Positions 11,065 through 63,451 of a DNA stretch of 64,000 bases are shown here, piece by piece. The notes beneath the pieces were generated by a model. The model saw nothing but the letters and a program-made list of their open reading frames with translations. It had not been told where the DNA came from and did not search any database. The translations under genes were made by a program, and so were the position numbers. Source of the DNA: an uncultured Solirubrobacterales bacterium (GTDB lineage: Bacteria > Actinomycetota > Thermoleophilia > Solirubrobacterales > JBBDJG01); contig CAVWYB010000035.1 of NCBI GenBank assembly GCA_963759145.1, positions 32,824 to 96,823 of the forward strand. The letters are read 5' to 3'. Positions within the stretch are counted from its first letter, which is position 1, and every line of letters starts with the position of its first letter.

Positions 11065-11087
11065 CGGTGGCGGCACCGATCGTGCCG

Positions 11088-16598: not shown

Positions 16599-16653
16599 CG
16601 GCCGTGCTGAGGCTCGCTAGCCCTCGAACTATCAGGCACGAAAAGTGACGGCC

Positions 16654-46805: not shown

Positions 46806-47883
46806 CGCGTAGGGCGAGCACGCGACGAGCCGCGGCCTCGAGGTCGGCTCGCGGGATCGCACCGGCGGAGGCCGCTCGTTCGAGGCCCGCGGCGGCCAGC
46901 GCGCCGGCGCGGTAAGTGCGCGCGAAGAGCAGCAGGTCGGTGCCGGCGGCTGCCGCGCGCCTCGCGACCTGCTTCGGCCCTCCATATCGGGCCAGCGCCG
47001 GGCTCTCGAGCGTGTCGGTGATCGACACTCCTTCGAAGCCCAGGCGGCCTGCGCAGCTCGCCGGTCGGCGACCGCGCGCGAGAGCGCCGCCGGCAGGCGG
47101 TCGAGGGCCGGGTAGACCGCCGTGCTCAGCATCACCATGCGATCGCCGCCGCGGATCCCGCGCGCGAACGGCGGCTCGTCGACGCCGCGAATGGTCCGCG
47201 CGGAAAGCGGGATCCGGACGGGGCCGTAGTCCGTGTTGGTGGCGGCGGCGCCGAAGCCGGGGAAGTGCTTCAGGGTCGCGACCACGCCGGCGTCCTCGAT
47301 GCCTGCCGCAAACGCGTCCGCAAGCGCGGCCGACTGCGGCCGGCTCCTGCCCGTATGTGCGCTCTTCCCTCTGCAAGGCGCTGCCGGGGCGTGCGACGTC
47401 GGCAACCGGCGCCAGGTTCACGTTGATCCCGAGCGCGCGCAGGTTCCGTCCCGCGCTTCGCCCTTCCGCCCGGGCGAGCCGCGGATCGTCGGCGCGGCCG
47501 ACGCTCTCGGCGGACAGCTCCGGTGGCCCGGGTACGTGGTTCGTCTCGCCTCCCTCCTGGTCCACCATCACGAGCAGTGGGGCGTCCAAGGGCGAGGCAG
47601 CGTTGAGGCGCTGCGCGCGGCGGATGAGCGCGCGCAAGCCGCGCCTCGAGCGGAAGTTCCTCGAGAAGATCACGATCCCGGCGGCCTCGCCCGCCCGGAT
47701 CCGGCGAGCCAGCCCGCGGGGCAGCGTGCGGCCGGGGAACGCGAACACGAACCGCTGCCCGACCAGCTGGGAGATGGACAGCGCGGGCCCGCTCGCCCGC
47801 GGTGAGCTCTCGCCTTCCCCGCATGCCGCCGTCCCGATCGCCAAGACCGCGAGAGCGGTCCGGACGGTCGCGCGCCCGGTCAC
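46756..47883 (-). CDS. glycoside hydrolase family 3 N-terminal-domain protein (beta-N-acetylhexosaminidase/NagZ-like) lipoprotein, frameshifted (~47400, ~47050)
   Basis: Lipobox LAIGTAACG, then VDQEGG, NVNLAPVADV, ATLKHFPGFG and GFEGVSITDTL. Confidence 0.75.
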   Translation of the reverse strand: MTGRATVRTALAVLAIGTAACGEGESSPRASGPALSISQLVGQRFVFAFPGRTLPRGLARRIRAGEAAGIVIFSRNFRSRRGLRALIRRAQRLNAASPLDAPLLVMVDQEGGETNHVPGPPELSAESVGRADDPRLARAEGRSAGRNLRALGINVNLAPVADVARPGSALQREERTYGQEPAAVGRACGRVCGRHRGRRRGRDPEALPRLRRRRHQHGLRPRPDPAFRADHSRRRRAAVRARDPRRRSHGDAEHGGLPGPRPPAGGALARGRRPASCAGRLGFEGVSITDTLESPALARYGGPKQVARRAAAAGTDLLLFARTYRAGALAAAGLERAASAGAIPRADLEAAARRVLALRARLARAPRTAPGGPGR

Positions 47884-48779
47884 CGGACCTCCTCCGCGCG
47901 CGCACGTCGAAGCGCCTCCACGAACGGCATCGGCGCGACGTCGAAGAGCGCCGCGCCGGTCGGATCGGTGACCACCGTGGTGGTCGAGAGCCCTTCGACC
48001 AGCGGCCGCGCGACGCCGGCGTCGACGGGCGTGACGAGTCCGATCCAGAGCGACGAGAGGCGGGGCGACAGCAGGGGCACGGGCAGCTTCGGCCGGCGCC
48101 GCCGGTCCAGCACATCGGCCATGCGATCGAGCATCTCCCCATAGGAGAGGACGTCGGGACCGCCGATCTGGATCTCCCGCCCGGCGGACGCCTCCACGCT
48201 CGCCGCCGCAACAAGATACGCGAGCACGTCGTCGACCGCGATCGGCTGCGTCGGGGTCCCGAGCCAGGCGGGCGCGATCATCGCCGGCAGGCGCTCGACG
48301 AGGTAGCGAAGGGTCCGGTAGGACTCGCTGGCGGCGCCCACCACCATCGCCGCCCGGAAGTAGGTGAGGGGAGGTCCTTCCGCGCGCAGGACCTCGGCGG
48401 TCTCGTGGCGGGAGCGCAGGTGCTTCGAGCCCGGGCGATCGCCGAGGCCGCCCAGGTATACGACGCGCTCGATGCCCTCGTCGCGCGCCATCCGCGCAAA
48501 CGCGCGAGCAGCTTCACGGTCGCGCTCGCCGTAGTCGCGATCCCCGCCCCGGCCCATCGAATGGATCAGGTAGTAGGCGATGTCGACGTCGCGCCCGGCG
48601 CCTGCGAGCGTCTCGGGACGGGTCACGTCCCCTTCGTGGAGCTCTACGCCGCGATGCTCGAGCTCAGCCGCGCGGGCGCGGTCGCGCACCAGTCCCCGGA
48701 CGTCGTAGCCGGCATCCGCAAGCGCAACGGCGAGCTTGCCGCCGATGAATCCGGTCGCGCCTGTCACGAGGGCACGCAT
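47880..48779 (-). CDS. NAD(P)H-binding NmrA/complex-I-NDUFA9-like SDR-family protein, intact (alternative start 48803)
   Basis: MRALVTGATGFIGGKLAVAL. The stop overlaps the GTG start of the GH3 gene (GTGA). Confidence 0.8.
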   Translation of the reverse strand: MRALVTGATGFIGGKLAVALADAGYDVRGLVRDRARAAELEHRGVELHEGDVTRPETLAGAGRDVDIAYYLIHSMGRGGDRDYGERDREAARAFARMARDEGIERVVYLGGLGDRPGSKHLRSRHETAEVLRAEGPPLTYFRAAMVVGAASESYRTLRYLVERLPAMIAPAWLGTPTQPIAVDDVLAYLVAAASVEASAGREIQIGGPDVLSYGEMLDRMADVLDRRRRPKLPVPLLSPRLSSLWIGLVTPVDAGVARPLVEGLSTTTVVTDPTGAALFDVAPMPFVEALRRARAEEVR

Positions 48780-48852
48780 CTGAGGTCCGGCATATAGCAC
48801 CATCTGATGGTTCGGAGCCGGGTCGATTCCGGCTCAGCGCCGGTGCGGGCGG

Positions 48853-49981
48853 CTAGCCCAGGCCGATCGCGGGGGCGCGGAGCCTTGCGACCACGCGCGG
48901 GAGCGGCAGGTGGTGGAGGTGGGGCTGGAAGGCCGCATCGCCGTAACCGCTCAGATGCTCGCGCGCGACGACCTCGACCGCGGCTTCGACCACGCCGGGG
49001 TCGAAGTGGTAGCCGGCGCGCGATACCAGCATGCTCAGAGCCTGCGGATGGGTGAGCTCTGCGGAGTCCGCCGCGGTGACCCGCGCCCAGATGTCGGCCA
49101 CTGCCAGGATCCGGCTCGTGAGCGGGATCAGCTCGCCTATGAGCGCGCCCGGCGTGCCGCCCGGCGCGTCCCAGTGCTCGCGATAGAAGAGCAGCGTCTT
49201 CCTGCACCTCGCTCCAGTGCTCGAACTCACCGGCCTGCAGCTCTCCCTGGACGGCGTGGAAGACCTTTGCGTCGAGGAATGTCGCGGCGTCCTGGAGCAC
49301 CGCCCGGTCCCTTCGCTCGAGGCGCAGGACGTGAGCGATGGCACGCGCATAAAGCGCGACCGCCTTCTGGTAGGGCAGCTCGCGCACCGGTCGCGGCCGC
49401 AGCAGCACCGGCAGCACGGCTTGCGGGATCACCACGATCACCGAGAACAGCACGAGCGCGAACACACCGATGTGCTCGAAGAGGAACGCCGTCGTGACTC
49501 CGACGGCGATCATCAGCAGCGTCGCGGGCGCGGGGCGGATGAGCTCTTCGCGCACGATCGCGCGCATCGGCTCCCCGTTGAGGATCACGCCGATGATGGC
49601 CCGTGCGATGGCGAAGTTGACGCACAGCATCGCGATACCCGCGAGCGCGAGCGCAGCGTATGAGGAGCCGAGCAGGTGCAGCACGAATGCACCGGCGAGC
49701 ACCGCCCATCCGTAGGAGGCGATGTTCGCCACGTGGGCCTCGATCGTCCTCCTGCTGAGCACGAAGTACACGGCCTCCGTCGCGAGCCAGATGCAGGCCG
49801 CGGGCAGTGGGCCGAGGAAGTCGAGCGCCAGCAGCACCGCCACGAAGCATGCGTCGAGGAACAGGGCCGGCTTGATCGCGACGAGGCCCCAAAGGCTTAC
49901 GAGCGCGATCGCCGTCAGCGCGACCAGCAGCACAGGGTCGCCCCACCGCTCCGCGCCGGGGGCGAGCGCGAATGCGGGCAC
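48853..49981 (-). CDS. polytopic membrane protein with a C-terminal degenerate HD-GYP-like domain, one frameshift ~49200
   Basis: 7-8 TM N-region. The C-terminus YREHWDAPGGTPGALIGELIPLTSRILAVADIWARV...GYHFDPGVVEAAVEVV aligns to HHERWDGSGYP...IPLEARILAVAD...FDP, but without the HHE/GYP residues. Confidence 0.6.
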
Positions 49982-50190
49982 CAGGGCCGCAATTGCAAGG
50001 ACCGCGACCCAGCGCGCGAGGAGCGTGCGGCCGGCATCGCCGGCAGCTGGTGGCGTGGGGACCTGGATAGGCGCTTCCGTGGCTGAAACAGACTTCGGAG
50101 GAAACGGTACGCGCGGTCGCGCCGGCGCGCAACCAACGTTCGTCCAGATGCCGTTTAGGCTGACGCCCCCGGCAGAAGGAGAGGAGAACC

Positions 50191-51099: not shown

Positions 51100-51545
51100 A
51101 GCGCGCCGCGGCCCGAGCGCTGATCGAACGGCGATCCCGACATGAAGAAGAACCAGAACTCGAACACCACGACTGCACCGATCACGACCAGGACGAGGAC
51201 GCGCTCGGGCTGCGGTGACGCGCGGAGCCTCGTCCGGGTACACCGGGCGCTCGCCGCGCATGCTGCGCAGCCACGGCGTGTGCGCCCGGACGTTGGGGGC
51301 CTGTCCGCTGCTCTTGTTGTAGGCCCGCTGCAGCACCGCGATCAGGCCGGACCAGGGTGAGGCTCAAGGTGAGCAGCACGATCACGAGGACCAACAGGGC
51401 GGTCATGGTCAGCGGGCCACTCCCCTGGGCATGCGACCCGACCCACAGCGCGAACAGCGGCCCGCCGGTCCAGAGGTTCAGGGACGGCGAGCCCGATCAG
51501 CGAGAGGAGAGCGACGCGCCACAGCTTCTCACGGACCTGGTCCAA
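51100..51545 (-). CDS. hypothetical membrane protein (3 TM), frameshifted; 3' end uncertain
   Basis: GGCGGAGG RBS plus TTG 51545. Pieces LWRVALLSLIGLAV / LNLWTGGPLFALWVGSHAQGSGPLTMTALLVLVIVLLTLSLTLV / SGLIAVLQRAYNKSSGQAPNVRAHTPWLRSMRGERPVY / VLVLVVIGAVVVVFEFWFFFM. Divergent from the TetR gene. Confidence 0.45.
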
Positions 51546-51559
51546 CGAACCTCCGCCCT

Positions 51560-51599
51560 CTCGGATACAGTACGTATTTAAATACATTATGAATCCGAG
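51560..51599. promoter_or_regulatory. AT-rich palindromic operator/promoter region between the TetR gene and the divergent membrane-protein gene
   Basis: CTCGGAT...ATCCGAG outer arms enclose the perfect 12-bp palindrome GTATTTAAATAC (51574..51585). Confidence 0.55.
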
Positions 51600-52261
51600 A
51601 TGTCAAGAGCGGGCCCAAGGGAAGGCCGCGCCGGCAACCACGGCGCACGCGGGCCGAGAAGCAGGCAGAGACGCGCCGCTGCTCCTCGAGGCAGCCGAGG
51701 AGCGTCTTTCGCCGCCGCGGATTCGCGAGCGCGACGGTGGAGGAGATCACGGAGCGCGCCGGCTTCAGCCGCGGCGCCTTCTACTCGAACTTCGAAAGCC
51801 GCGAGCAGCTCTTCATCGAGCTGCTGCACAAGCGCGTCTACGACGAGTTCACCCGCATGCTGCAGCGGACCCCGCGCAAGAAGACGGCACGCGCACAGAT
51901 GAAGTCGACGGCGCGCGAATTCGCTGCGCGCTACGAGCACGGCGAGCGCTGGCTCTTCGAGCTGTGGCTCGAATGCCTGGCCTATGCGGCGCGGCACCCG
52001 GAGTTCGCATCCCTGCCGGCGACCTTCTGGCGTGGCAACCGCGCCCTGACCGCGCAGCAGATCGACGCCACCTACGGCCAGGTGGGACAGCGGCCGCCGA
52101 TCGAGTCGAAGCACCTCGCGACCGCCTTGACCGCCCTCGACATCGGCCTCGCGATCCAGAACCTGGTGGACCCGGAAGAGGTCCCGCTGGACCTCTATCC
52201 GAAGCTCTACGACCTGCTCTTCGGCCCCCTGCTTCCCGAGGACGCGCCCGCGGTTAGGTAG
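51600..52261 (+). CDS. TetR/AcrR family transcriptional regulator, frameshifts ~51690 and ~51725
   Basis: HTH region FASATVEEITERAGFSRGAFYSNFESREQLF. The N-terminal basic leader lies in other frames. Confidence 0.8.
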
Positions 52262-52293: not shown

Positions 52294-52367
52294 GCCGACG
52301 TAGCTCAGCTGGCCAGAGCACTTCACTCGTAATGAAGGGGTCCCCGGTTCGAATCCGGGCGTCGGCT
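52294..52367 (+). tRNA. tRNA-Thr (anticodon CGT)
   Basis: Manual cloverleaf: GCCGACG-TA-GCTC-AGCTGGCCA-GAGC-A-CTTCA-CTCGTAA-TGAAG-GGGTC-CCCGG-TTCGAAT-CCGGG-CGTCGGC-T. 74 nt, no encoded CCA. Confidence 0.9.
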
Positions 52368-52368
52368 T
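52322..52368 (+). repeat. copy 1 of a 47-bp direct repeat (att-like core) inside tRNA-Thr
   Basis: ttcactcgtaatgaaggggtccccggttcgaatccgggcgtcggctt is identical at 56748..56794 and 63229..63275. Confidence 0.9.
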
Positions 52369-52752
52369 GACGAGAAAGCGCTTGGCGAAGCCGTTTGCGG
52401 CAATGCTTCTCCCCTTTGCTCGCTTCTCGATCCGGCGGTGGGCAATGGATTGGGCAAGGCGCTACCGGCTTCGGGGTGCCGCCAGTTCCATGGGCACCCG
52501 AGCTTCGCTTTGATGTCGTACCGAGTGGCGAGCCAGTCGTCGCGTGTCGGCGGTGGAAGCGCGCCCAACGCGGACGGGCTGTTGTCGGGCCGCGGAACGC
52601 GGTTAGCCCTGCCGACACGCATTCGCTCTCACCGGATGTGCTCAGGCACCCACCAGCCTTAGCGCACACGCGGGTCCTTCCCGGATCGGAGTAGGTCGAG
52701 CGGAAGCAGCCGCTGGTGCGGTCGTCCCGGCCTGGGTGTGGGGTCGGGTCGC

Positions 52753-52782
52753 TTGACATCCGCGGCGAGGTCGCATTAGTGT
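52753..52782 (+). promoter_or_regulatory. sigma-70-like promoter candidate (TTGACA-N18-TAGTGT)
   Basis: Consensus -35 hexamer at 52753..52758 and TAnnnT at 52777..52782, about 300 nt upstream of the epoxide hydrolase ATG. Confidence 0.3.
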
Positions 52783-53084
52783 CGCGATGCACGGCCGCAA
52801 CAAGTAGGACCAGGGCAGGCCCGCTGATTTGCGGGGGCCAATGCAGTCAGAGACCGCAGGCAGGTCGGGCGTAGTTCGGCCCGTAGGCCGGGCTCACAGT
52901 GCGCACGCCAACGGCATGGCTCAGTCTGTGCCGGGCTCGGCGCTGTGGCGCCTGCGGCACCTGGCATCAGACGTTCGCTTGCGACAAAGCCTTCGCGGGC
53001 CGCTCGATCCGGGCGGCGTTGCAGACAGACGCTCAGGCTCCGTGCCGTCACCAAACCACCGTCCCCTAACCAAGGAGGACCCAC

Positions 53085-54293
53085 ATGGCTGTCAAGACTG
53101 AAAAGTCAGCGGACGCCACAGCGATCCGGCCGTTCACAATCGACATCCCCGAGGCGGACCTCGAGGACCTGCGCGCGCGCATCGCGGCCACGCGCTGGCC
53201 CGAGAAGGAGACCGTCGACGATGACTCGCAGGGCGTGCAGCTGGCGACGATGCAGGCGCTCGCGCGCTATTGGGTCGACGAGTACGACTGGCGCAAGTGC
53301 GAGGCCAAGCTCAACTCGGTGCCCAACTTCATCACCGAGATCGACGGGCTCGACATCCACTTCGTCCACGTTCGCTCCAAGCACGAGGACGCGCTGCCGG
53401 CCGTCATCTGCCACGGATGGCCCGGTTCGGTCATCGAGCAGTTGAAGATCGTCGACCTGCTCACCGACCCCACCGCGCATGGCGGTAGTGCGTCGGACGC
53501 CTTCCACGTGGTGATCCCCAACATGCCGGGCTACGGGTTCTCGGGCAAGCCGACGACGACCGGCTGGGGCCCGGAGCGCATCGGGCGCGCCTGGGTCGAG
53601 CTGATGAAGCGCCTCGGCTACACGCAGTTCGTGGCGACAGGCGGCGACTGGGGCGGGATCGTCGTCGATCTGATGGCCGCTGAGCCGGCGCCGCCGGAGC
53701 TGCTCGGGATCCACAGCACCTTCGCCGGGGTGGTTCCGCCCGCCATGGACAAGGCGATCCCGACCGGCGCCCCGCCGCCGTCGGATCTCTCAGACGACGA
53801 ACGACGCACGTACGAGATGTTGGCGGGCGCCTACGGGTACGCGGGCCAGGCCGAGATGGCGTGGCACCCGCAGTCGCTGTTCGGACTGGCTGACTCACCC
53901 GTCGCCCTGGCGGCCTGGCTGATCGACCACGACCCGGTCAGCTACAAGACACTGATCGCCCCCGCCTTCGTCGACGGGCGCGAGGGAGGCCTGACGCGTG
54001 ACGACATCCTCGACAACATCACCCTGTTCTGGTTGACGAACACCGGCGTTTCCGCGGGGCGCATCTACTGGGAATTCAAGGGCAGCTGGGCCGGTGTCAG
54101 GAACGTCTCCGTTCCAGTTGCCGTGAGCAACTTCCCCGACGATGTCATCTACTCCGCGCGGAGCTGGGCGGAGGAGGCGTACCCCAACCTCGTGCACTTC
54201 AACGACGTCGACCGCGGCGGGCACTTCGCCGCCTGGGAGCAGCCGGAGCTGTACACCTCCGAGCTCCGCACGGGGTTGCGGTCGCTTCGCTAG
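53085..54293 (+). CDS. epoxide hydrolase (microsomal-type, with N-terminal EHN domain), intact
   Basis: IRPFTIDIPEADLEDLRARIAATRWPE, ITEIDGLDIHFVHVRS, HGWPGS and ATGGDWGG. Confidence 0.9.
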   Translation: MAVKTEKSADATAIRPFTIDIPEADLEDLRARIAATRWPEKETVDDDSQGVQLATMQALARYWVDEYDWRKCEAKLNSVPNFITEIDGLDIHFVHVRSKHEDALPAVICHGWPGSVIEQLKIVDLLTDPTAHGGSASDAFHVVIPNMPGYGFSGKPTTTGWGPERIGRAWVELMKRLGYTQFVATGGDWGGIVVDLMAAEPAPPELLGIHSTFAGVVPPAMDKAIPTGAPPPSDLSDDERRTYEMLAGAYGYAGQAEMAWHPQSLFGLADSPVALAAWLIDHDPVSYKTLIAPAFVDGREGGLTRDDILDNITLFWLTNTGVSAGRIYWEFKGSWAGVRNVSVPVAVSNFPDDVIYSARSWAEEAYPNLVHFNDVDRGGHFAAWEQPELYTSELRTGLRSLR

Positions 54294-55205
54294 ATGTCCG
54301 TATTTGCACGTGCGCGCATTCCCTCGCTCGGTGGGGCGACCGAGTGGCTCAACTCAGAGCCACTCGGCCCCGCCGAGCTGCGTGGACACACAGTTCTCGT
54401 GAACTTCTGGACGCTGACGTGCATCAACTGGCTGCGCCAGGAGCCGTTCGTTCGCGCGTGGTCGCAGGCCTACCGAGACGACGGGTTGGTCGTGATCGGA
54501 GTGCACACGCCGGAGTTCTCGTTCGAGCACGAGGTCGACGGCGTGCGGCGGGCGACGCAGGAGCGAGAGATCGACTACCCGGTCGTGGTCGACAACGACT
54601 ACGAAATCTGGAGCGCCTTCGACAACAACTACTGGCCGGCGCTCTACTTCGTCGACGCGGACGGCGTGATCCGCGACCACCACTTCGGCGAAGGACGCTA
54701 CGAGCAATCGGAGCGCGTCATCCAGCGGCTGCTCGACCTCGAGCGCGAGCTCGTCGCCGTCGAAGGAGTCGGCGTGGAGGCCGAGGCCGACTGGGACCAC
54801 CTGCGGACGCCCGAGACGTATCTCGGCTACGGGCGCGGCGATCGGCCCGCGTCACGGGACGGCCTGGGGTTGAACCAGTGGGCGCTCGCCGGCGAGTGGA
54901 CGACCAGCCCCGAGAATGTCGTGCTCGACCATGCCAGCGGGAGCATCGCCTACCGGTTCCACGCGCGCGACGCGCATCTCGTGCTGTCTCCGGGAACGCG
55001 AGAGCCGATTCCCTTCCGGGTGCTGCTCGACGGCGAGGCTCCGGGCCCGTCACACGGCGTGGACGTCGACGAGGACGGGAACGGCTTGCTCCGGGAGGGC
55101 CGCCTCTACCAGCTCGTGCGCGAGCACGACGCGGTCCGCGAGCGGACGCTGGAGATCACGTTCCTCGAGCCGGGCGCCGAGGCGTACGTGTTCACGTTCG
55201 GGTAG
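54294..55205 (+). CDS. redoxin/thioredoxin-like protein related to the DipZ C-terminal domain, intact
   Basis: VLVNFWTLTCINWLRQEPFV...GVHTPEFSFEH..., YWPALYFVDADGVIR, plus a C-terminal beta-rich domain. The ATG directly abuts the preceding stop. Confidence 0.75.
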   Translation: MSVFARARIPSLGGATEWLNSEPLGPAELRGHTVLVNFWTLTCINWLRQEPFVRAWSQAYRDDGLVVIGVHTPEFSFEHEVDGVRRATQEREIDYPVVVDNDYEIWSAFDNNYWPALYFVDADGVIRDHHFGEGRYEQSERVIQRLLDLERELVAVEGVGVEAEADWDHLRTPETYLGYGRGDRPASRDGLGLNQWALAGEWTTSPENVVLDHASGSIAYRFHARDAHLVLSPGTREPIPFRVLLDGEAPGPSHGVDVDEDGNGLLREGRLYQLVREHDAVRERTLEITFLEPGAEAYVFTFG

Positions 55206-55390
55206 GAAATGGCCTCTGCGCCGTCCAGGAGACCAGGGAGTAAACCAGGGCCTCCACGGGCGCGACAGCCAGACGAGACGACCAGGCTTGGCGTCGCCCA
55301 AACCAAACGCCGCCAAGCGTTGTCGCGTCGCCGCGAGTCGCCGCTGCCTCGGCAGCTACCTGACAGCTCTGTATCGAACGAGGAGGCCTC

Positions 55391-55642
55391 ATGCCTGACA
55401 TACAAGGAGCCACGCAAGACGGTCCCCGGGATGCTCGGATCGTCGAGGAGCACCACGTCACCGGTCCGCACGGTGAAGACGAGATCGAAGGCATCGACGA
55501 TCGCGGACGGCGGTGGTACCACCTCCGGCCGGAGCCTCCCCGCCGCACCGATTTCATGGGCTTCAACTCCACGTGGTGGATGGCGGTGGGCTGGGTCCTC
55601 GTGATTCTCGTCCTTCTCTTCCCATTCCCTTGGTGGTGGTAA
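55391..55642 (+). CDS. hypothetical small protein with a C-terminal TM segment
   Basis: AGGAGG RBS. 83 aa ending WWMAVGWVLVILVLLFPFPWWW. Confidence 0.5.
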   Translation: MPDIQGATQDGPRDARIVEEHHVTGPHGEDEIEGIDDRGRRWYHLRPEPPRRTDFMGFNSTWWMAVGWVLVILVLLFPFPWWW

Positions 55643-55664
55643 CGGAAAGGATGAAGTTGACCTC

Positions 55665-56300
55665 ATGACGGACGCGCTGACGTCGTCACAGCGAGTCGGC
55701 GAGGACGGGCAAACAGCCGAGCGCCTGAGCGATCAACTCGAGCGGTGGTTGGGCGAGGGTCAGCAGCAAACGCTCGGCAGCTTGAACGACCTGTTCGGGA
55801 GCAAGGCGTTTGCGGTCTTCTTCATCGTCTTGATGGCGCCGTCCGCGCTTCCCCTCCCGACGGGCGGAGTGACGAATGTGCTCGAGCTCGTGGCGATGTT
55901 GCTTGCCCTCGAGCTGATCGTCGGTAGGCGCACGGTATGGCTACCCGAGCGCTGGAAGCGTTTGGACCTTGGGGGACCCAGGAGAGAACGGTTTGCGAGT
56001 GCGCTGGTGCGACGGGTCCGCTGGGTCGAGCGGTTCTCGCACCCGCACTTGCGCTTCCTTTTCGGCCACCGCCTTACCGGCGTGGTCGTCGGGATACTGG
56101 TACTGGCACTTACGCTCGCGGCGTTTGTGGCGCCGCCGTTCTCCGGCTTGGACACCTTGCCCTCCCTCGGGATTGTCCTTCTCGCGTTCGGCGTGCTGTT
56201 CGAGAACTTCTACCTGGCCATCGCCGGTCTCGTGATCGGAGCCCTGGGGACGTTGCTCGTAATCGTCCTCGGACGCCAGGCGATTGAGCTGGTTCTGTAG
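55665..56300 (+). CDS. exopolysaccharide biosynthesis protein ExoD family, intact
   Basis: 211 aa. LGSLNDLFGSKAFAVFFIVLMAPSALPLPTGGVTNVLELVAMLLALELIVGRRTVWLPERW is the ExoD pattern. Confidence 0.8.
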   Translation: MTDALTSSQRVGEDGQTAERLSDQLERWLGEGQQQTLGSLNDLFGSKAFAVFFIVLMAPSALPLPTGGVTNVLELVAMLLALELIVGRRTVWLPERWKRLDLGGPRRERFASALVRRVRWVERFSHPHLRFLFGHRLTGVVVGILVLALTLAAFVAPPFSGLDTLPSLGIVLLAFGVLFENFYLAIAGLVIGALGTLLVIVLGRQAIELVL

Positions 56301-56588
56301 ATGCCCGTACGCGCTCCTATATCTACGCGCACGGGCTGAACGAGACGGCTTTGACTTCGTCGTTCTCTGTGGCGAGGGTCATGTGATGCACGAGCTGACG
56401 CTGACTGGGCTTGACGAACTCCTTCCCGTAGTCAATCCCTCAGCGGTGCTTCCAGAGACGATTAGTGCCCCGTCGTCTGGAAGCGCCTCGAGAAGGCTGG
56501 GCACGCCGAGCGGATAGGGAAGCGCAGCTACCACGTCATCAGCGTCGTCCCGAAGGCCGCGATGGCGGCCGCCCGCGCTCGTTGACGG

Positions 56589-56794
56589 GGTTGCGCAGGG
56601 TTCGATACTCCTGCATTCCTGACCTTCGGCTCTCGTGGGCCGTATATGGGCCGTACGGATTTGACCAACGCAGTCATATCGGGTCCGCCTGGGGCAGATG
56701 GATCGGGTCTGGACTGCCCCCGGAAGGACTCAACTGGACAGACTCGTTTCACTCGTAATGAAGGGGTCCCCGGTTCGAATCCGGGCGTCGGCTT
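56589..56794 (+). repeat. copy 2 of the 47-bp core (56748..56794) preceded by a ~160-nt conserved non-coding arm
   Basis: GGTTGCGCAGGGTTCGATACT...TCGTGGGCCGTATATGGGCCGTACGGATTTGACCAACGCAGTCAT...GGACAGACTCGT is homologous (about three quarters identical by eye, with small gaps) to 63074..63228. Confidence 0.85.
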
Positions 56795-56799
56795 ACTCC

Positions 56800-57158
56800 G
56801 TTGTGGCATGCGTGCCGCCGGGCGATAGCGCTGGCAGTAATTGTGCGCACACAGGTAGGAGCCACCCGTCATCACCTTCCGTGGGATTGGGACGTTGGGC
56901 AACAGTGGATCATGACTTTGCTCCCGCGGCCTTCATGGCCGACCGCTACGCGAGCTTCCGGGCCGCATCGGTCCCGTTCGATTCCGAGCACTGGGCGGAG
57001 ATGCCGGTAGGCGACGGGTAGCAAGCGGAGCCTGTCAAGTCCGACGAGCCTGCACTCAACCGGTCCATCACCGGGTCCCACACACGGCGGTCAGCGCCCA
57101 GCGCGTCGAGCAGGATGAGCGGCGGGCCCGCTCCACGGCTGTCGAAGGCGAGTTGCAC
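56800..57158 (-). pseudogene. 5' fragment of an alpha/beta-hydrolase gene, frameshifted and truncated at the repeat
   Basis: MQLAFDSRGAGPPLILLDALGADRRVWDPVMDRL is a typical alpha/beta-hydrolase N-terminus. Downstream frames decay (VAVGHEGRG in place of a GHSxGG elbow) and the gene ends at the 47-bp copy. Confidence 0.45.
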
Positions 57159-57166
57159 AGCCGGCC

Positions 57167-57544
57167 TCAGCGGTGGGCGGCCCGGCCCACCGCAGCGCTG
57201 ATCAGCGCCGAGCCGCCTGCGACGACCACAGTTGCGGGCGCAGAGCCCTCGGGGAGGCCGCGGCGGCCCGCCAGGGTTGCCCCGATGTCCGCCAGGTCCC
57301 CGGCGATGCTGGCCGCGAGGTACGGCCGCACGGGCGCGCTGCGTAGGGCAGCCGCGATCGCCAACCCATGCAGCGCCACCTCGCGCGCTCCCAGGCCGCG
57401 GAGCGCGACCTGCGCAGCAGGCTTAGCGGCGGTTGGCCCGAGCCACCTGCGGGTGAGACGTGCGGGAACGGCGATCAGCGCCGCCCCATAGGCGACGCGT
57501 AGCGTCAGCACGGCAAGGGCGGCAGTGCGGGAAGGCGTGGACAT
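57167..57544 (-). CDS. hypothetical membrane protein
   Basis: MSTPSRTAALAVLTLRVAYGAALIAVPARL... is about 125 aa with 3-4 hydrophobic segments. Divergent from the SDR gene. Start chosen at the internal ATG 57544. Confidence 0.45.
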   Translation of the reverse strand: MSTPSRTAALAVLTLRVAYGAALIAVPARLTRRWLGPTAAKPAAQVALRGLGAREVALHGLAIAAALRSAPVRPYLAASIAGDLADIGATLAGRRGLPEGSAPATVVVAGGSALISAAVGRAAHR

Positions 57545-57621
57545 TCCGGTCAAGATACGGGCGAGCGGGCACCGTCGATCAGTGATCGGCGCTCCCGCGG
57601 CGCGCGTAACCTCGTGTAGAC

Positions 57622-58409
57622 ATGGATCTCTCCGGCGCAACCGCCCTCGTCACCGGGGCCAACCGCGGCATCGGCCGCGCGCTCACCGAGGCCCTTGCCG
57701 CACGGCCGCTGCGAATGGTGCTCGCGGGCATGCGCGACACTGGGAGGTTCGAGCAGGTGGAAGGGGGGCCGCCGAGGTCCGCCCCGTGTGGCTCGATCTC
57801 TCCAGCCGTGAGTCCATCGACTCGTGCGTCGACGCTCTGGGGGACGACCTCGGGAAGATCAACGTGCTCCTGAACAACGCCGGCCAGATGACCGGGGGGC
57901 TGCTCGAGGAGCAGGACATGGGCGAGGTCTACTCGATGTTCCAGGCCAATCTGATCGCGGTTGCCCACCTCACGCATCGATTGCTCCCACACATGCTCGC
58001 GAACGGGCACGGCAAGGTCGTGAACAACGCTTCCATCAGCGGCTATGCGTACTTCCCCGCCGCCACCACATACGCTGCGTCCAAGGCTGGCGTGGTGGCG
58101 CTGAGCGAGTCCCTGCGTCGCGAGCTGAAGGGCACCGGCGTCGACGTCCTGCACCTGGTCACACCCGGCGTGAACACCGACATGCTCGATGCGACCGAGG
58201 ATGTCTACGGCCGCCACATAGATACCTCCCGCTGGGAGAAGGTCGAGCCCGCGGAGTGGGCAGCGAAAGTCCTCGAGGCGATCGTGAACGACGACCACGT
58301 CCTCGGTCCCGGCGGCCGGACGGCCGTCGCCAAACTCGCATCGCGGGGCCCAGCGTTCCTGCTCGACTCGCTCAGCGCGCGGATGTTCAGCCGCCAACCG
58401 CGCTCATAG
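57622..58409 (+). CDS. short-chain dehydrogenase/reductase, one frameshift ~57765
   Basis: ALVTGANRGIGRAL, LLNNAG and YAASKAGVVALSESL (YxxxK). Confidence 0.85.
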
Positions 58410-59634
58410 CCGAGGGAGTCGTTACTGCCGTCACCGCCGTCCGCGGGTGATGGCCTGCCCAGCGTGGCTTCGCCAGCAGCGCCTGGATCAGGCCGATCCT
58501 GCGCTCGGCGAAGCCGGCCTCGCAGTAGGACAGGTACATCCGCCAGAGCCTGCGGAACCGCTGGTCGTATCCAAGCGACTCCAACTCCTCGGCGGCTGCT
58601 TCGAAGTTCGCCCGCCAGCGGCGCAGCGTCTCGGCGTAATGGGGAGTGAGGTCATCGAGGTGCTCGGTGGCGAAGTCGGTCCGGCGCGCAACGCACTTCG
58701 CGATGACCTGCCGCGAGGGTAGGCAGCCGTTCGGGAACACGTAGGTCCGGATGAAGCTCTTCGATGCCTTCTCGACCTCGTACGCGTCGTCATCCATCGT
58801 GATCGCCTGCAGCAGCATCACGCCGTCTGGTGCGAGCAGGTCCGAGCAGCACTGGAAGAACGTGCCGAAGTCCTTCCATCCCACCGCCTCGATCATCTCG
58901 ATCGACACGAGCTTGTCGTAGCTGCCGCGCAGATCGCGATAGTCGTCGAGCAGCACCTCGACGCGGCTCTCGACACCGGCCTCCCGCACCCGCGCGAGGG
59001 CCATGTCGTGTTGTGCCTTCGAGATCGTCGTGGTCGTCACCCGGCAGCCGCGCGTGAGGGCCGCGTGCACCGCGAAGCCGCCCCAGCCGGTGCCGATCTC
59101 GAGCACGTGGTCGGCGGGCCCCAGATCGAGCTTGTCGCACACCATGTCGAGCTTGGCGATGGACGCCTGCTCCAACGTCATCCCACCGTCGTCGAAGACC
59201 GCGCACGAGTACATGAGCGTCGGATCGAGCATGTGGGAGAACAGCTCGTTCCCCAGGTCGTAGTGCGCCGCGATGTCCTTCCGGCTCCGCGTCGGCGTAT
59301 TGCGCAGAAAGGCGGCACGCATCCTCTGGTAGGGGGCGCGGGCGAACGTCAGCCGGCGGCGAATCCGGTCGATCCCGTCCACGTTGCGCGCCGCGACGCG
59401 GATCACCGCCGTGAGATCGGGCGTGTCCCACATTCCCGCCATGTAGGACTCTCCCAGACCGCGACTGCCGCGCAGCAGAGACACCCATGCACGGGTAGAG
59501 CGCACGTGGATCGTCGCCCGGGGCGCTCCTTCGCCGAACACCTGAGGGCGGCTGTCCTCGATCACCGTCAGCTCCCCGCAACGCAGCCGCGACAGCACCG
59601 CCGAAACGATCCTGCGCGCGACCCACTCGATCAC
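58387..59634 (-). CDS. cyclopropane-fatty-acyl-phospholipid synthase family SAM-dependent methyltransferase, intact
   Basis: AHYDLGNELFSHMLDPTLMYSCAVF, VLEIGTGWGGFAVHAA, FVFPNGCLPS and WRMYLSYCEAGF. Confidence 0.9.
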   Translation of the reverse strand: MIEWVARRIVSAVLSRLRCGELTVIEDSRPQVFGEGAPRATIHVRSTRAWVSLLRGSRGLGESYMAGMWDTPDLTAVIRVAARNVDGIDRIRRRLTFARAPYQRMRAAFLRNTPTRSRKDIAAHYDLGNELFSHMLDPTLMYSCAVFDDGGMTLEQASIAKLDMVCDKLDLGPADHVLEIGTGWGGFAVHAALTRGCRVTTTTISKAQHDMALARVREAGVESRVEVLLDDYRDLRGSYDKLVSIEMIEAVGWKDFGTFFQCCSDLLAPDGVMLLQAITMDDDAYEVEKASKSFIRTYVFPNGCLPSRQVIAKCVARRTDFATEHLDDLTPHYAETLRRWRANFEAAAEELESLGYDQRFRRLWRMYLSYCEAGFAERRIGLIQALLAKPRWAGHHPRTAVTAVTTPSAMSAVGG

Positions 59635-60356
59635 GACGGCTGTACTCCCGGATGGGGCTGGACCGGCACTCCCTTAAGCTTCAGCGCGACCGCGTGCCCG
59701 TAGATCAGCGCAAGCATCCGCACCGTCGCGGCGGGGTGCCGGGCGGTCACGCGAGCGAGCGAGCGCCGCGTGAGCGACACGTGGCGAAGCCCGAGCGTGG
59801 CGTCGAAGGCGACCCTCCCATCCTCGCTGCTCTCGATGTGCACCGAGAGGGTCTCACCCGGCGCGGGAGCGCGCCACGTATAGCGCTGGTCCATGCGCAT
59901 GAAGGGAGAGACGTGCAGTGCCTTGTCGAGGTCGCCGCGGATTACGGGGCCACCGCCGTGCGGCAGCACGTATGCGTGGCGCTCGCCCCAGGGCGTGCTG
60001 GTCACTTCGGCGAGGACCGACTGCACCTGCTCCCCGTCTGCCGCAAAGCAGTAGTAGAAGCTCACCGGGTTGAAGCAGTGCCCGAAGGTGCGCAGATGGG
60101 TCAGGACCCGGATCGGCCCCTCGGGGCGCGACCCGCAACGGGATGCGACCAGCGACCGCACGGCCTCGTCGAGCGGCTGCGCCGGGTCGCCCAGGTAGTC
60201 GCTGCGACGGAAGCGCACAAGGCCGGGCGCCGGTGCGGACAAGCCTCCCATCCAGCAGCCTGGGCAGCTCGTCCAGGTCCACGTAGGCCATCGCGATGCG
60301 ATGACGGAACTCGTGGGAGCGGACCGCGAAGCGGCGGTGGCGGATCGTGCCTTCAT
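59631..60356 (-). CDS. DUF1365 family protein, intact
   Basis: HSALYEGTIRHRRFAVRSHEFRHRIAMAYVDLDELP...FRRSDYLGDP...LRTFGHCFNPVSFYYCF. The start of the downstream methyltransferase overlaps its stop (ATGA). Confidence 0.85.
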   Translation of the reverse strand: MKARSATAASRSAPTSSVIASRWPTWTWTSCPGCWMGGLSAPAPGLVRFRRSDYLGDPAQPLDEAVRSLVASRCGSRPEGPIRVLTHLRTFGHCFNPVSFYYCFAADGEQVQSVLAEVTSTPWGERHAYVLPHGGGPVIRGDLDKALHVSPFMRMDQRYTWRAPAPGETLSVHIESSEDGRVAFDATLGLRHVSLTRRSLARVTARHPAATVRMLALIYGHAVALKLKGVPVQPHPGVQPS

Positions 60357-60371
60357 AGAGAGCGCTGTGCA

Positions 60372-61619
60372 TCAGATACTCCCTACCCCCAGGCGCTCGG
60401 CCACCCGCACCGCGCTGGTCACGCCGTCCTCGTGGAAGCCCCAGCCCCAATAGGCGCCGCAATAGTGCGTGCGGTTGCGGCCGCTGATCTCGCCGTGGCG
60501 AGCCTGCGCGGCCTGGCCGGCCGCGGTGAAGACCGGATGCGCGTAGGGAATCGTGCGGATGATCTTGCCGGGGTCGATCGCGCTCGTGTGGTTGAGCGTC
60601 ACGCAGAACTCGCGGTCGGCGTGCAGCGACTGGAGCCGGTTCATGTGGTAGGTCACTGTGGGCTTGCCTCGGGGCGTAACAAGCAGGTGGTAGTTCCAGC
60701 TCGCCCATGCGCGCCGGCGCCGCGGCAGCAGTCGGGTGTCGGTGTGCAGCACCGCTTCGTTGGGCTGGTACGGGATCGCGCCAAGCAGCTCGTGCTCCCG
60801 CTGCGTAGCGTCGGTGAGCAGTGCGAGTGCCTGGTCGGAGTGAGTCGCGAGGACCACCTCGTCGAAGCGCTCGACCTCGCCCCCGCGCGGGGTGATTGCG
60901 ACGTGGCCCTCATGGCGGTGGATGGAGTCGATCGGCGTCGACAGGCGCAGGCGGTCGCGCCACGGCCTCACGAGCGCCTCCACGTAGCGGTGCGACCCGC
61001 CGTGGACCGTGCGCCACTTCGGCCTCCCGCGGAAGTTGAGCATCCCGTGGTTGTGGAAGAACTCGAGCAGGAACCGTGCGGGGAAGCTCCACATCTGCCG
61101 CGGGTCGGCGGACCAGACCGCGGCCGCCTGGGGAACGATCAGCCGGTCGACAAACGCAGGGGAGAAGCGCCGGGCCTCGAGCCAGTGACCGAGCGACGGG
61201 CCCGTGTCATCGGATCGCAGTAACTCCCGGGCCTCGCGGTTGAAGCGCACCAGATCGGCCACCATCCGGTGGAACCACGGTGACGCGAGATGCGCGCGCT
61301 TGGCGAAGAGCCCATTCGGTGATGCGCTGCTGTACTCGAAGTCGCTCGCCTCATCGGCGACGGCGAAGCTCATGGTCGACGACTGGCTCGCCACACCCAG
61401 ACGCTCGAGCAGGCGCTCGAAGTTCGGGTAGTTGCGGTTGTTGAAAACGATGAACCCGGTGTCGACCCAGTGGGTCTCGTGGTCGGTGTCCACGCGGACG
61501 GTGTTGGTGTGGCCGCCCGGGTAGGAGCCGGCCTCGAACACCGTCACCTCGTGCCGGCGCGCGAGCAGGTGGGCCGCGACCAGGCCGGACACTCCCGCGC
61601 CGACGACGGCGATTCTCAT
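60372..61619 (-). CDS. FAD/NAD(P)-binding amine-oxidase / phytoene-desaturase-like oxidoreductase, intact
   Basis: MRIAVVGAGVSGLVAAHLLARRHEVTVFEAGSYPGGHT (GxGxxG dinucleotide fold). 415 aa. First gene of the minus-strand operon. Confidence 0.85.
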   Translation of the reverse strand: MRIAVVGAGVSGLVAAHLLARRHEVTVFEAGSYPGGHTNTVRVDTDHETHWVDTGFIVFNNRNYPNFERLLERLGVASQSSTMSFAVADEASDFEYSSASPNGLFAKRAHLASPWFHRMVADLVRFNREARELLRSDDTGPSLGHWLEARRFSPAFVDRLIVPQAAAVWSADPRQMWSFPARFLLEFFHNHGMLNFRGRPKWRTVHGGSHRYVEALVRPWRDRLRLSTPIDSIHRHEGHVAITPRGGEVERFDEVVLATHSDQALALLTDATQREHELLGAIPYQPNEAVLHTDTRLLPRRRRAWASWNYHLLVTPRGKPTVTYHMNRLQSLHADREFCVTLNHTSAIDPGKIIRTIPYAHPVFTAAGQAAQARHGEISGRNRTHYCGAYWGWGFHEDGVTSAVRVAERLGVGSI

Positions 61620-61695
61620 TGGCGAAGCTCGGAGTCCGCAGCGTGCACGGACAGTTATACGCGTCGGCGAGGGTGTTCAGATCACCGAAAGAAGG

Positions 61696-61766
61696 TCGGG
61701 GCGACTGGATCTGAACCAGCCACCGCTCGGCTCCCAGCAGCCGAGTGCGCTAGCAGGCGCCTCCCG
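61696..61766 (-). pseudogene. tRNA-Pro-like sequence, apparently degenerate (good T-arm and 3' acceptor, shortened D-region, 8-nt anticodon loop)
   Basis: The minus strand reads CGGGAGGCGCCTGCTAGCGCA-CTCGGC-TGCTGGGA-GCCGAG-CGGTG-GCTGG-TTCAGAT-CCAGT-CGCCCCG-A-CC. The 3' half resembles tRNA-Pro(TGG). The 5' acceptor pairs at only 5 of 7 positions. Confidence 0.4.
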
Positions 61767-62141
61767 CCGCAGCCAGGCAGCTGTCGACGGTTTCGTCACG
61801 ACTGGCATTCGAAATGCGCCACTCACGCAGGCGTTTCCCGAGCTCGCGGGAAGCTGCGCGTGCGATGGCGGAGGACAAGATCGACTTCCTCAGCGGCGGC
61901 ACCTACCGGCAGAAGCATGCGAGGCCGCTGGAGGGTTTCTGCCGAGACGCGTCGAGCAAGACCTGCACCCTGCGGGTGTGCCCGAGAGGACGTCCCTGGA
62001 ACTCAAAGAGCTGGGACCCCGACAACGGGGGGCGCGGATGGACGCAGGCTTGCCTCGCTCACCTCGAACACGACGGAGAAGACATCCAAGCGGCCCTGCG
62101 TTTCGAACAACTCCCAAATAACAACAAACTGGAGGTAGCTC

Positions 62142-62894
62142 GTGACGCACAGCTTCTCACTCTCCCGAGCCCTGTGGGCTCTACCCGTGGCGCTTGGATT
62201 GATGGTCGTGATGCTGGTCGCCAGTCCGGCCGCCCAGGCACACGGGAAGTCGTGGAAGCACTGGGACGGCGGCAAGTGGGGTCAGTGGCACAAGACGCAC
62301 AACCACAAGCCCAACACCGATGGTAGGACCGTATCCGTGGTCGGCGGGAACACCAAGCTTTTCGTCGACGAGGGCACCGGGGTCGCGCTGGGGTCGCTCG
62401 GCATCGCAGTCGAGCCGGTCGATTCCGCCAGTGTCTCACGCGGCGACGGGTTCCGGTTCCCGATCACGGGCGGTGAGGTGAACGCCAAGACGCTCGTGGG
62501 CCAGATCAGGCACAGCGGAGGGCTTGCTTTCGTGAAGGGCTCCACCCGTGTCGAGTTGACCGACTTCTACATCAACATTGACGCCCAGCCCGACCTCACG
62601 GCGGTGGTGGGCGGCTCTCGAGTCTCGATCCTGTCGTTTGACGTATCCGATCTGGAGCGCAAGGACAGGGGCAACAAAGTCCGGCTCAGCGGCATCAAGG
62701 CAAGCCTCACTTCCGATGCGGCGGCAGCGCTAAATGCTGCGTTCTCGACCAGCGCGTTCCAGGAAGGGCTGCTGATCGGCACGGCCCGAGTGAAGGCGTA
62801 CGCCCACAGCAGCGACGGCCGCCACGGCGACGACGACGATGAGGACGACGACCGCCACGGCGACCACGATGGCAAGCGCGGGTCCGACCGCTAG
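62142..62894 (+). CDS. secreted hypothetical protein with a His-rich N-region and a His/Asp/Glu-rich C-terminal tail, intact
   Basis: GGAGG RBS plus GTG start and signal peptide ...LMVVMLVASPAAQAHG. HGKSWKHWDGGKWGQWHKTHNHK follows, and the tail is HSSDGRHGDDDDEDDDRHGDHDGKRGSDR. Confidence 0.7.
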   Translation: MTHSFSLSRALWALPVALGLMVVMLVASPAAQAHGKSWKHWDGGKWGQWHKTHNHKPNTDGRTVSVVGGNTKLFVDEGTGVALGSLGIAVEPVDSASVSRGDGFRFPITGGEVNAKTLVGQIRHSGGLAFVKGSTRVELTDFYINIDAQPDLTAVVGGSRVSILSFDVSDLERKDRGNKVRLSGIKASLTSDAAAALNAAFSTSAFQEGLLIGTARVKAYAHSSDGRHGDDDDEDDDRHGDHDGKRGSDR

Positions 62895-62934
62895 CGCAAC
62901 GCCGTAGCGGCATGCACACGACGACGGATCCTCT

Positions 62935-62963
62935 GAGGGCCGGCTGCTCGGCGGCCGGCCCTC
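62935..62963 (+). terminator. 10-bp GC stem hairpin downstream of the secreted-protein gene
   Basis: GAGGGCCGGC-tgctcggcg-GCCGGCCCTC lies 41 nt after the stop, followed by a small GACG-gaaa-CGTC hairpin. Confidence 0.5.
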
Positions 62964-63073
62964 CGACGGAAACGTCGTCATCACCAAGGAGGAACTGCTG
63001 CGGGGCCTGGCTTTTAAGCCGGGGCGACGCCAAACGGGACTACGGCTACAAGGAGCCGTTACCCCACCGGGAA

Positions 63074-63275
63074 GGTTGCGCGGGTTCGATACTACCGTCT
63101 TGACCCTCGACTATTCGTGGGCCGCATATGGGCCGTACGGAATTGACCAACGTAGTCATGTGGGGTTCGCCCGAGACACATCGATCCGCCTGCCCTGCCC
63201 CAGCGAGGACCCCACCGGACAGACTCCTTTCACTCGTAATGAAGGGGTCCCCGGTTCGAATCCGGGCGTCGGCTT
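63074..63275 (+). repeat. copy 3 of the 47-bp core (63229..63275) preceded by the conserved non-coding arm
   Basis: GGTTGCGCGGGTTCGATACT...TCGTGGGCCGCATATGGGCCGTACGGAATTGACCAACGTAGTCAT...GGACAGACTCCT plus the identical core. Confidence 0.85.
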
Positions 63276-63451
63276 TGGCTCGCAAAGACGAATTCAGGCA
63301 CTCGGTGAGCAGTCCCACTGGTGGGAGAGGGGTAGACGCAGGCCTGGGGTATCGGCGCCTGTCCCGCTTGATGTGGCGATCAAGGCGTGATCGGATATCT
63401 TCGGTTGGCCACAGTGGGCTCATGCCTGTTGAGTGATCGGAGAGGAGCGAA

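Follow-up and report, generated by a model that had tools for sequence, protein, structure and literature searches.

How does a tRNA gene come to be followed by two further exact copies of its own 3' part, with blocks of unrelated genes set between them and no enzyme in sight that could have put them there? The question is raised by a 64,000-nucleotide stretch of DNA from an uncultured Solirubrobacterales bacterium (assembly GCA_963759145.1, contig CAVWYB010000035.1, positions 32,824 to 96,823 of the forward strand), referred to here as the window and numbered from its first letter, in which three direct copies of a 47-bp sequence delimit two gene-bearing segments at tRNA-Thr(CGU). We read this locus as a tandem array of two integrase-less islands of 4.4 and 6.5 kb, flanked by attachment (att) sites and of the kind termed cis-mobilisable elements (CIMEs), which accreted at a tRNA-Thr(CGU) hotspot, and give this reading a probability of roughly 0.8.

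Repeats of the tRNA-Thr 3' end and the corresponding locus in relatives

The sole tRNA of the window, identified as tRNA-Thr(CGU) by both ARAGORN and Rfam, contains the 47-mer TTCACTCGTAATGAAGGGGTCCCCGGTTCGAATCCGGGCGTCGGCTT, which begins at tRNA position 28, within the 5' strand of the anticodon stem, and extends a single base beyond the 3' end. An initial annotation of this DNA, made from the letters alone, had listed three mismatch-free direct copies, and exact matching reproduced all three at the same coordinates, each on the plus strand (Table 1). A fourth copy with up to three mismatches was found neither in the 64-kb window nor in 100 shuffles (0 matches). The two displaced copies (2 and 3) score as tRNA in neither ARAGORN nor Rfam and carry 0 substitutions over their 94 bp.

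Soil metagenomes contain hundreds of homologues of the TetR regulator that adjoins the tRNA, and the contigs with the closest of those that were fetchable (L001-L008) were compared with the window. All eight contigs have retained the tRNA-Thr gene together with the DNA upstream of it; they stay collinear with the window as far as 52368/52369, where the core ends, with a nucleotide identity of about 77-84%, and part from it there. On the 3' side of the tRNA, at least three differing contexts were observed among these relatives: a DUF2252 gene in L005, cupin and SnoaL genes in L006-L008, and in L001-L003 two minus-strand genes, the first encoding a tyrosine integrase of 396 aa (PF14659, PF22022, PF00589) and the next an HTH_17 excisionase-like protein. 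The same xis-int-tRNA-Thr order was seen in two contigs found via integrase homologues, one with holB-tmk-topA genes as neighbours, like L001 and L006 (L012), and one with differing neighbours (L013); the integrases of these five contigs measure 396-397 aa. Their reading frame stops within the core, such that the last 14 residues, SRRPDSNRGPLHYE, are an antisense translation of it. Integrase frames crossing attP have precedents in Mx8 and SSV (PMC4383910).

Because the integrases of relatives end in the core and synteny breaks at it, the 47-mer is the att identity block (att core) of the tRNA-Thr 3' end, and the site is a real integration hotspot. The suggestion of the initial annotation that the repeat is the att footprint of a tyrosine-recombinase element is thus borne out by relatives in which an integrase and an excisionase accompany an identical core at this very tRNA-Thr. 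Neither segment was present at this tRNA in any relative examined, which speaks against universally syntenic chromosomal DNA, and the annotation's proposed search for an empty site likewise yielded no relative with the tRNA joined to sequence matching 63276 onward.

The integrases belong to a large family of phage-type tyrosine integrases with more than 2600 members at E < 1e-20; at least nine of its clusters carry the tRNA-Thr tail SRRPDSNRGPLHYE, and other members end in other tRNA-antisense tails. The C-terminal tail of such an integrase could, judged from these sequences, be used as a read-out of its target specificity. The tails were seen in proteins P0121-P0159 and in the L001 integrase (10705-11895), and one belonging to another tRNA target is exemplified by ...DSNPRPPLYESGALAN. 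One member of the family is assigned to a Solirubrobacterales metagenome-assembled genome (MAG) by its NCBI name, and the nearest characterised integrases are those of Gordonia and Mycobacterium phages, at 26-30% identity. Conjugation genes were not seen in 10 kb of an integrase-bearing relative.

Displaced cores, recognised by any base but C directly before them, were sought by exact-pattern scans, which gave 0 matches in 185,579 GTDB representative genomes, 0 in viral contigs and only three among metagenome contigs (L009, L010 and L011); no intact element with both ends was recovered from any of the three collections.

Structure of the two segments

Segment 1 measures 4379 bp between cores (52369-56747), or 4426 bp from core start to core start, and segment 2 measures 6434 bp (56795-63228), or 6481 bp. 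Both follow one plan: a short left end comes first, then the block of cargo genes, then a right arm that is related between the two. The right arms are homologous (56589-56745 against 63074-63226) with 79% identity over about 158 bp, their divergence having also been put at 15-20%. Each arm holds two TGGGCCGTA-type repeats with 11-bp spacing, about 100-113 bp ahead of the core: TGGGCCGTA at 56636-56644 and 56647-56655 in segment 1, and TGGGCCGCA at 63118-63126 with TGGGCCGTA at 63129-63137 in segment 2. A stretch resembling a tRNA D-arm immediately precedes the core in both, CTCAACTGGACAGA as compared with CTCAGCTGGCCAGA of the tRNA itself.

Since the homologous arms have diverged, the cores are perfect and the two cargos are mutually unrelated, duplication in situ is excluded; the diverged right arms and unrelated cargos uphold the earlier view that two related elements accreted in tandem. 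The accompanying statement that perfect cores stand beside diverged arms is correct for the right arms and does not extend to the left ends, which have only an 8-mer in common. This 8-mer, GGATTGGG, lies at 52447-52454 (79 bp past core 1) and 56884-56891 (90 bp past core 2), and these are two of its four occurrences in the 64 kb.

Further candidates were tried on the ends and arms and rejected. Homology of the left ends to one another or to int 3' regions amounted to nothing past about 25 bp and the GGATTGGG 8-mer; as regards structured RNA in the arms, Rfam reports the tRNA alone; and arm plus core fold no better than shuffles into an attC-like structure (z = -0.85). A T-arm-like stretch, GGTTGCGC(A)GGGTTCGATACT, was noticed at the outer end of both right arms (56589-56611 and 63074-63096) and may be the relic of another tRNA-derived att site.

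Gene content was called from frame analysis of third-position G+C (GC3) combined with Pfam. The cargo has Pfam domains of metabolic or envelope-related kind only, precisely as initially described, and the 717 bp reported as gene-free at the left of segment 1 indeed show no GC3 signal and no Pfam match. The truncated hydrolase gene placed at the left end of segment 2 was not recovered, nothing being detected in 56795-57524 by six-frame Pfam. The array is flanked by genes for an enoyl-CoA hydratase and a TetR/AcrR regulator left of the tRNA, and by a 91-aa open reading frame (ORF) and a DUF6458 membrane protein gene right of core copy 3.

Table 1. Coordinates of the tRNA-Thr array and its parts in the 64,000-nucleotide window
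Feature	Position	Strand	Description and basis
tRNA-Thr(CGU)	52294-52367	+	Intact integration target on the attL side of the array; ARAGORN, Rfam tRNA 68.7 bits
Core copy 1	52322-52368	+	Exact match; synteny with all relatives stops at 52368/52369
Segment 1 left end	52369-53035	.	667 bp, no gene detected (GC3, six-frame Pfam, integrase HMM)
Segment 1 cargo block	53036-56312	+	Four genes; Pfam, homology limits
Epoxide hydrolase	53085-54293	+	Segment 1 cargo; Pfam
Thioredoxin-like protein	54294-55205	+	Segment 1 cargo; Pfam
83-aa ORF	55391-55642	+	Segment 1 cargo
ExoD	55665-56300	+	Segment 1 cargo; Pfam
Segment 1 right arm	56313-56747	+	435 bp; part conserved with segment 2 is 56589-56747
Core copy 2	56748-56794	+	Displaced tRNA 3' fragment at the junction of segments 1 and 2; exact match
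Segment 2 left end	56795-57009	.	215 bp, no gene detected
Segment 2 cargo block	57010-62986	.	Five genes; Pfam, homology limits
Short-chain dehydrogenase	57525-58409	+	Segment 2 cargo; Pfam
Cyclopropane-fatty-acyl synthase family protein	58387-59634	-	Segment 2 cargo; Pfam
DUF1365	59631-60356	-	Segment 2 cargo; Pfam
Amine oxidase	60372-61619	-	Segment 2 cargo; Pfam
HtaA-like protein	62142-62894	+	Segment 2 cargo; Pfam
Segment 2 right arm	62987-63228	+	242 bp; part conserved with segment 1 is 63074-63228
Core copy 3	63229-63275	+	Displaced tRNA 3' fragment, right end of the array within the window; exact match
int 3'-end-like scar	63276-63301	-	tblastn of L001 integrase residues 374-396, 74% identity

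Recombinase genes and their traces

The absence of integrase, excisionase, replication and transfer genes, already remarked in the initial annotation, was confirmed, for recombinases by three concordant searches. Pfam revealed no integrase, resolvase or other recombinase among the called genes, and its six-frame application to the non-coding stretches of the segments and the right flank revealed no recombinase either. A hidden Markov model (HMM) of the integrase family, built from the members of 340-430 aa among the 120 best family matches and run with all filters off against the six-frame 64-kb window, reached E 0.17 at best, in an unrelated position. The six-frame HMM searches advised at the outset have accordingly returned no recombinase in the window. 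In neither segment did Pfam, applied to genes and to six-frame non-coding DNA, detect rep, tra (FtsK-like), int or xis, and a PHROGs search for phage functions yielded only esterase and FabG-like metabolic matches. A weak tblastn integrase match at 52818-53045 (E 1.3) was not borne out by the family HMM, and a decayed integrase in the left ends was rejected as well, the match being limited to the 14 core-encoded residues with a few more at copy 3.

Those few residues at copy 3 form a scar (Table 1). In the integrase frame, the DNA right of this copy reads VPEFVFASQ and runs into the core-encoded SRRPDSNRGPLHYE, comparable to the family pattern xEFRSxxG continuing into SRRPD.... The scar suggests that the segments may descend, by deletion, from integrase-bearing elements.

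A parallel case is provided by the unrelated metagenome contig L009, whose junction is built like those at copies 2 and 3, with an CGTGGGCCGTATTTGGGCCGCA arm at equal distance, a D-arm-like stretch and the core. Past its core follow an int-tail scar, ARFRSKKP leading into SRRPD, and the motif GGGATTGGGG, with no integrase in 1.27 kb. Tandem GGGCCG repeats occur in the arms of segment 1, segment 2 and L009; in each of the three they start about 113 bp ahead of the core. Because the L009 junction has the same design, integrase-less units with a shared arm type recur across independent samples.

The other two contigs with displaced cores, L010 (1223-1423) and L011 (483-683), have them behind a second arm type, which contains GTGCCCAATCCGTGCC, itself including the reverse complement of GGATTGGG. 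As these arms are unrelated to the arms described here, at least two element lineages use the core. A SnoaL_2 region that is 91% identical between L006 (9852-10173) and L009 (reverse strand, 174-494 bp past its core) was also observed; it stands 1.5 kb after an intact tRNA-Thr in the former and 174 bp after a displaced core in the latter, a placement that reflects further mosaic shuffling downstream of tRNA-Thr. A degenerate core was sought in L006 where the L009 homology starts, and none was found.

Source of the cargo blocks

The cargo of segment 1, from the epoxide hydrolase to 12 bp after the ExoD stop (53036-56312), is 97.3% identical to contig L014, and thirteen further contigs match it at 88-99.7% identity. 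The homology stops at 56312 in all 14 contigs, and the left limit at 53036 is seen in L014 alone. Beyond the point corresponding to 56312, 13 of the 14 contigs continue with the same 73-aa gene, succeeded by an RraA-like gene where the contig extends, and L015 diverges. None of the 14 contains a core, and L014 extends into backbone DNA that matches window positions 15734-16610 at 86%. The cargo of segment 2 (57010-62986) is 96.8% identical over 5984 bp to positions 430-6380 of L018, whose flanks are unrelated to the window and devoid of the core. No repeats were found at the cargo junctions apart from a 5-bp GCTCC microhomology at segment 1.

As near-identical DNA sits in core-free contexts elsewhere, both cargos were acquired recently, from chromosomal gene clusters that are common in related genomes. 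The comparison of base composition suggested by the initial annotation offered no independent signal of foreign origin: the G+C content of the segments is 66-68% against 69% for the backbone, and the GC3 of the cargo is typical of the genome. Such composition fits exchange among close relatives. An argument that the cargo is commoner than the backbone by cluster size was left unused, the ranges (1-44 against 1-9 members) being overlapping.

In its usual context, as represented by L014 (1-1269 and 1271-4567), L019 and L020, the segment 1 cargo includes a tandem pair of epoxide hydrolase genes. The paralogue directly upstream has 67-74% nucleotide identity, and the window has the second copy only.

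Backbone left of the tRNA

Several backbone genes left of the tRNA depart from an intact reading frame. The HD_5 gene at 48856-50086 changes frame near 49200, and the homologue of a 209-aa gene of L001 is scattered over three frames at 51105-51545. The TetR/AcrR gene (51593-52261) contains an 8-aa out-of-frame stretch, RCSSRQPRS as compared with RLLLEAAED in P0001, and has no ATG, GTG or TTG ahead of its helix-turn-helix. Outside the frameshifted stretch it is about 97% identical to P0001, its closest homologue, which comes from a contig of 1788 bp. These frameshifts reflect either local gene decay or assembly indel errors, and the six-frame searches are unaffected by them. The backbone on this side is also variable, since a stretch of about 1 kb (46806-47889) is extra with respect to L001 and the NmrA-like gene (47880-48803) is absent in L005 and L006. 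Backbone proteins recur at 90% identity or more on ENA contigs of 105 kb and 207 kb.

Proposed mechanism and competing explanations

Integration at this locus may be pictured as follows. The integrase would bind the symmetric anticodon stem ((C/T)TTCA ... TGAAG) and exchange strands in the 7-nt anticodon loop, as suggested by the core starting in the anticodon stem; an anticodon-centred class of att sites is on record (PMC4383910). The remainder of the identity block would restore the tRNA upon integration. The N-terminal arm-binding domain of the integrase (PF14659) would contact the tandem TGGGCCGTA repeats, its putative arm-type sites, while the HTH_17 protein would direct excision. In intact elements, int and xis stand immediately behind the tRNA and are read toward it. 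Only the att-proximal ends of such elements would have been kept here, and between the left end and an arm of about 160 bp lies cargo taken recently from the chromosomal clusters of related genomes. Within this scheme, we infer the position of the crossover, the function of the arm repeats, the way in which int disappeared and any mobility today. Neither segment is self-mobile, because neither encodes int and xis.

The reading as accreted integrase-less islands draws on a core identical to that of the L001, L012 and L013 integrases and on arms with plausible arm-type repeats. Several observations weigh against it. Neither an empty site nor a circular junction nor an alternative array turned up in the data examined; the left ends are mutually unrelated apart from the shared GGATTGGG; and the int-like scar occurs at the flank of copy 3 only, with none at copies 1 and 2. 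The integrase-bearing elements were read in part, the contig behind L001 measuring 52 kb, and the arms described here are presumed to be those on which the L001, L012 and L013 integrases act. The search for a helper integrase was confined to 64 kb of a source contig of 101,525 bp. Finally, the three frameshifted-looking backbone genes make the quality of the metagenome assembly a caveat.

The initial annotation had left decayed islands and satellites mobilised in trans side by side; the reading as integrase-less islands holds, and the evidence singles out neither of the two. The segments may be inert remnants of serial integration, followed by loss of int, xis and most of the backbone, with cores too young to have mutated, and to this history we assign even odds. 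It accords with the int-tail scars beside copy 3 and in L009 and with the decayed look of the adjacent backbone genes, and decay to CIMEs followed by accretion is the usual origin of such tandems (PMC5704250). It requires, however, two or three independent losses of int that spared the core and a short arm each time, and repeats standing equally far from the core in the arms of three independent junctions are unexpected unless there was selection or a very recent common origin. A more tentative proposal is that of functional satellites, minimal att-flanked cassettes moved in trans by the Int and Xis of a helper, whose arms and cores are under selection. This would explain why displaced cores are perfect beside arms diverged by 15-20%, why the ends are near a minimum (215 and 242 bp in segment 2), why L009 repeats the arm architecture independently among other neighbours and likewise has no integrase, and why the cargo, by its 97-99.7% identity to other loci, is very recent. 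Recent integration accounts equally well for perfect cores, though, and the satellite proposal is further weakened by the want of a helper integrase in the 64 kb, of any circular form, empty site or other location of either whole segment, and of displaced cores outside three metagenome contigs, with none in the GTDB representative genomes. Taken together, the perfect cores, near-minimal arms, fixed repeat position and recent cargo incline toward a trans-serviced history or a recent origin, whereas the int-tail scar and the lack of a helper, circle or alternative arrangement in the data incline toward decay. It is improbable, in our estimation, that the locus works as a cassette platform serviced in trans and comparable in function to an integron, with gene clusters placed between a left end and some 200 bp of recombination site made up of the arm repeats and the tRNA-derived core; there, a tyrosine integrase from helper islands would stack and shuffle cassettes at tRNA-Thr.

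Two further explanations were weighed. It might be suspected that the assembler fused DNA of different strains at the 47-bp repeat, so that no single genome would have the array, given that the window is from a MAG contig, that the cargo matches other contigs at 99% when the best relatives found for the backbone are more distant, and that short contigs break at the core. Such a chimera is nonetheless unlikely, because each core has unique sequence on both sides with continuous arm-core-left-end junctions, an independent Logan contig spans the cargo, arm and core of segment 2 (61512-63242, ending inside the core), and L009 independently has an arm-core junction of the same integrase-less design. 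Moreover, the cargo-to-arm junctions at 56312 and 62986 are without any repeat able to cause a false join, and 47 bp is shorter than the longest k-mers commonly used by current assemblers. The idea that the 47-mer is a dispersed repeat, or a miniature element derived from a tRNA, with no part in site-specific recombination has nothing but the repetition itself in its favour and is very improbable: the three copies in 64 kb are all direct and at a single locus, integrases of relatives end inside the same sequence, and the scatter over many unrelated loci that such a repeat would show is contradicted by displaced cores in just three metagenome contigs and in 0 of the 185,579 representative genomes.

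Significance and relation to known systems

As a tandem of integrase-less islands, the array leaves current concepts unchanged and offers a natural example of tRNA-hotspot islands pared down to their att ends while gaining fresh chromosomal cargo. Island finders that require an integrase would miss or merge such units. The uncharacterised family of more than 2600 integrases that run into their tRNA targets could be mined for site-specific integration tools, and if mobility in trans were true, the locus would represent a simple system for the spread of integrase-less cargo among soil Actinomycetota.

Actinomycete integrative and conjugative elements (AICEs) such as pSAM2 and SLP1 reside in high-G+C Gram-positive hosts, use an att segment reaching from the anticodon loop to the tRNA 3' end and recombine by means of a tyrosine integrase and an excisionase. 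The tRNA-Thr hotspot agrees with AICEs in these respects; the segments described here differ from them in that rep, FtsK/SpoIIIE-like tra, int and xis are absent from both. They differ from an integron array as well, the window having no integrase beside the att site and no folded attC (z = -0.85), and from a prophage or phage satellite, since PHROGs gave no phage structural, replication or packaging-interference genes. The ssrA islands of Dehalococcoides reportedly stand in tandem between direct repeats derived from the 3' end of ssrA and have kept their own recombinases; the present segments have none. One Dehalococcoides study describes an island with metabolic cargo at ssrA that was mobilised site-specifically (PMC3146451).

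The locus resembles the tDNA islands catalogued by Islander in having an intact tDNA with displaced direct 3' fragments, a repeat that starts in the anticodon stem-loop, and, in relatives, an int that extends across attP (PMC4383910). Both segments fall within the Islander length range of 2-200 kb; Islander also demands that each member of an array have its integrase, and both segments are without one (PMC4383910).

The closest functional kin are CIMEs and the tandem accretions that contain them. Accretions of CIMEs with integrative and conjugative elements (ICEs) or integrative and mobilisable elements (IMEs) are exemplified by the ICESt1/ICESt3-related elements of Streptococcus thermophilus (PMC5704250), and the reference list of that paper includes Zhang and Loria (2017) on Streptomyces pathogenicity islands with site-specific accretion and cis-mobilisation. 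The present array is unlike the CIME tandems in that a helper is found neither in the array nor in the window, that the integrase family and the host, which belongs to an uncultured and poorly studied actinobacterial lineage of high G+C, are others, and that any mobilisation is putative here. Its segments are like CIMEs in having putative attL and attR sites at their ends, in lacking genes for integration and transfer, in following one another at the 3' end of a target gene and in the adaptive or metabolic nature of their cargo; in relatives, this site is used by helper elements that have the cognate integrase.

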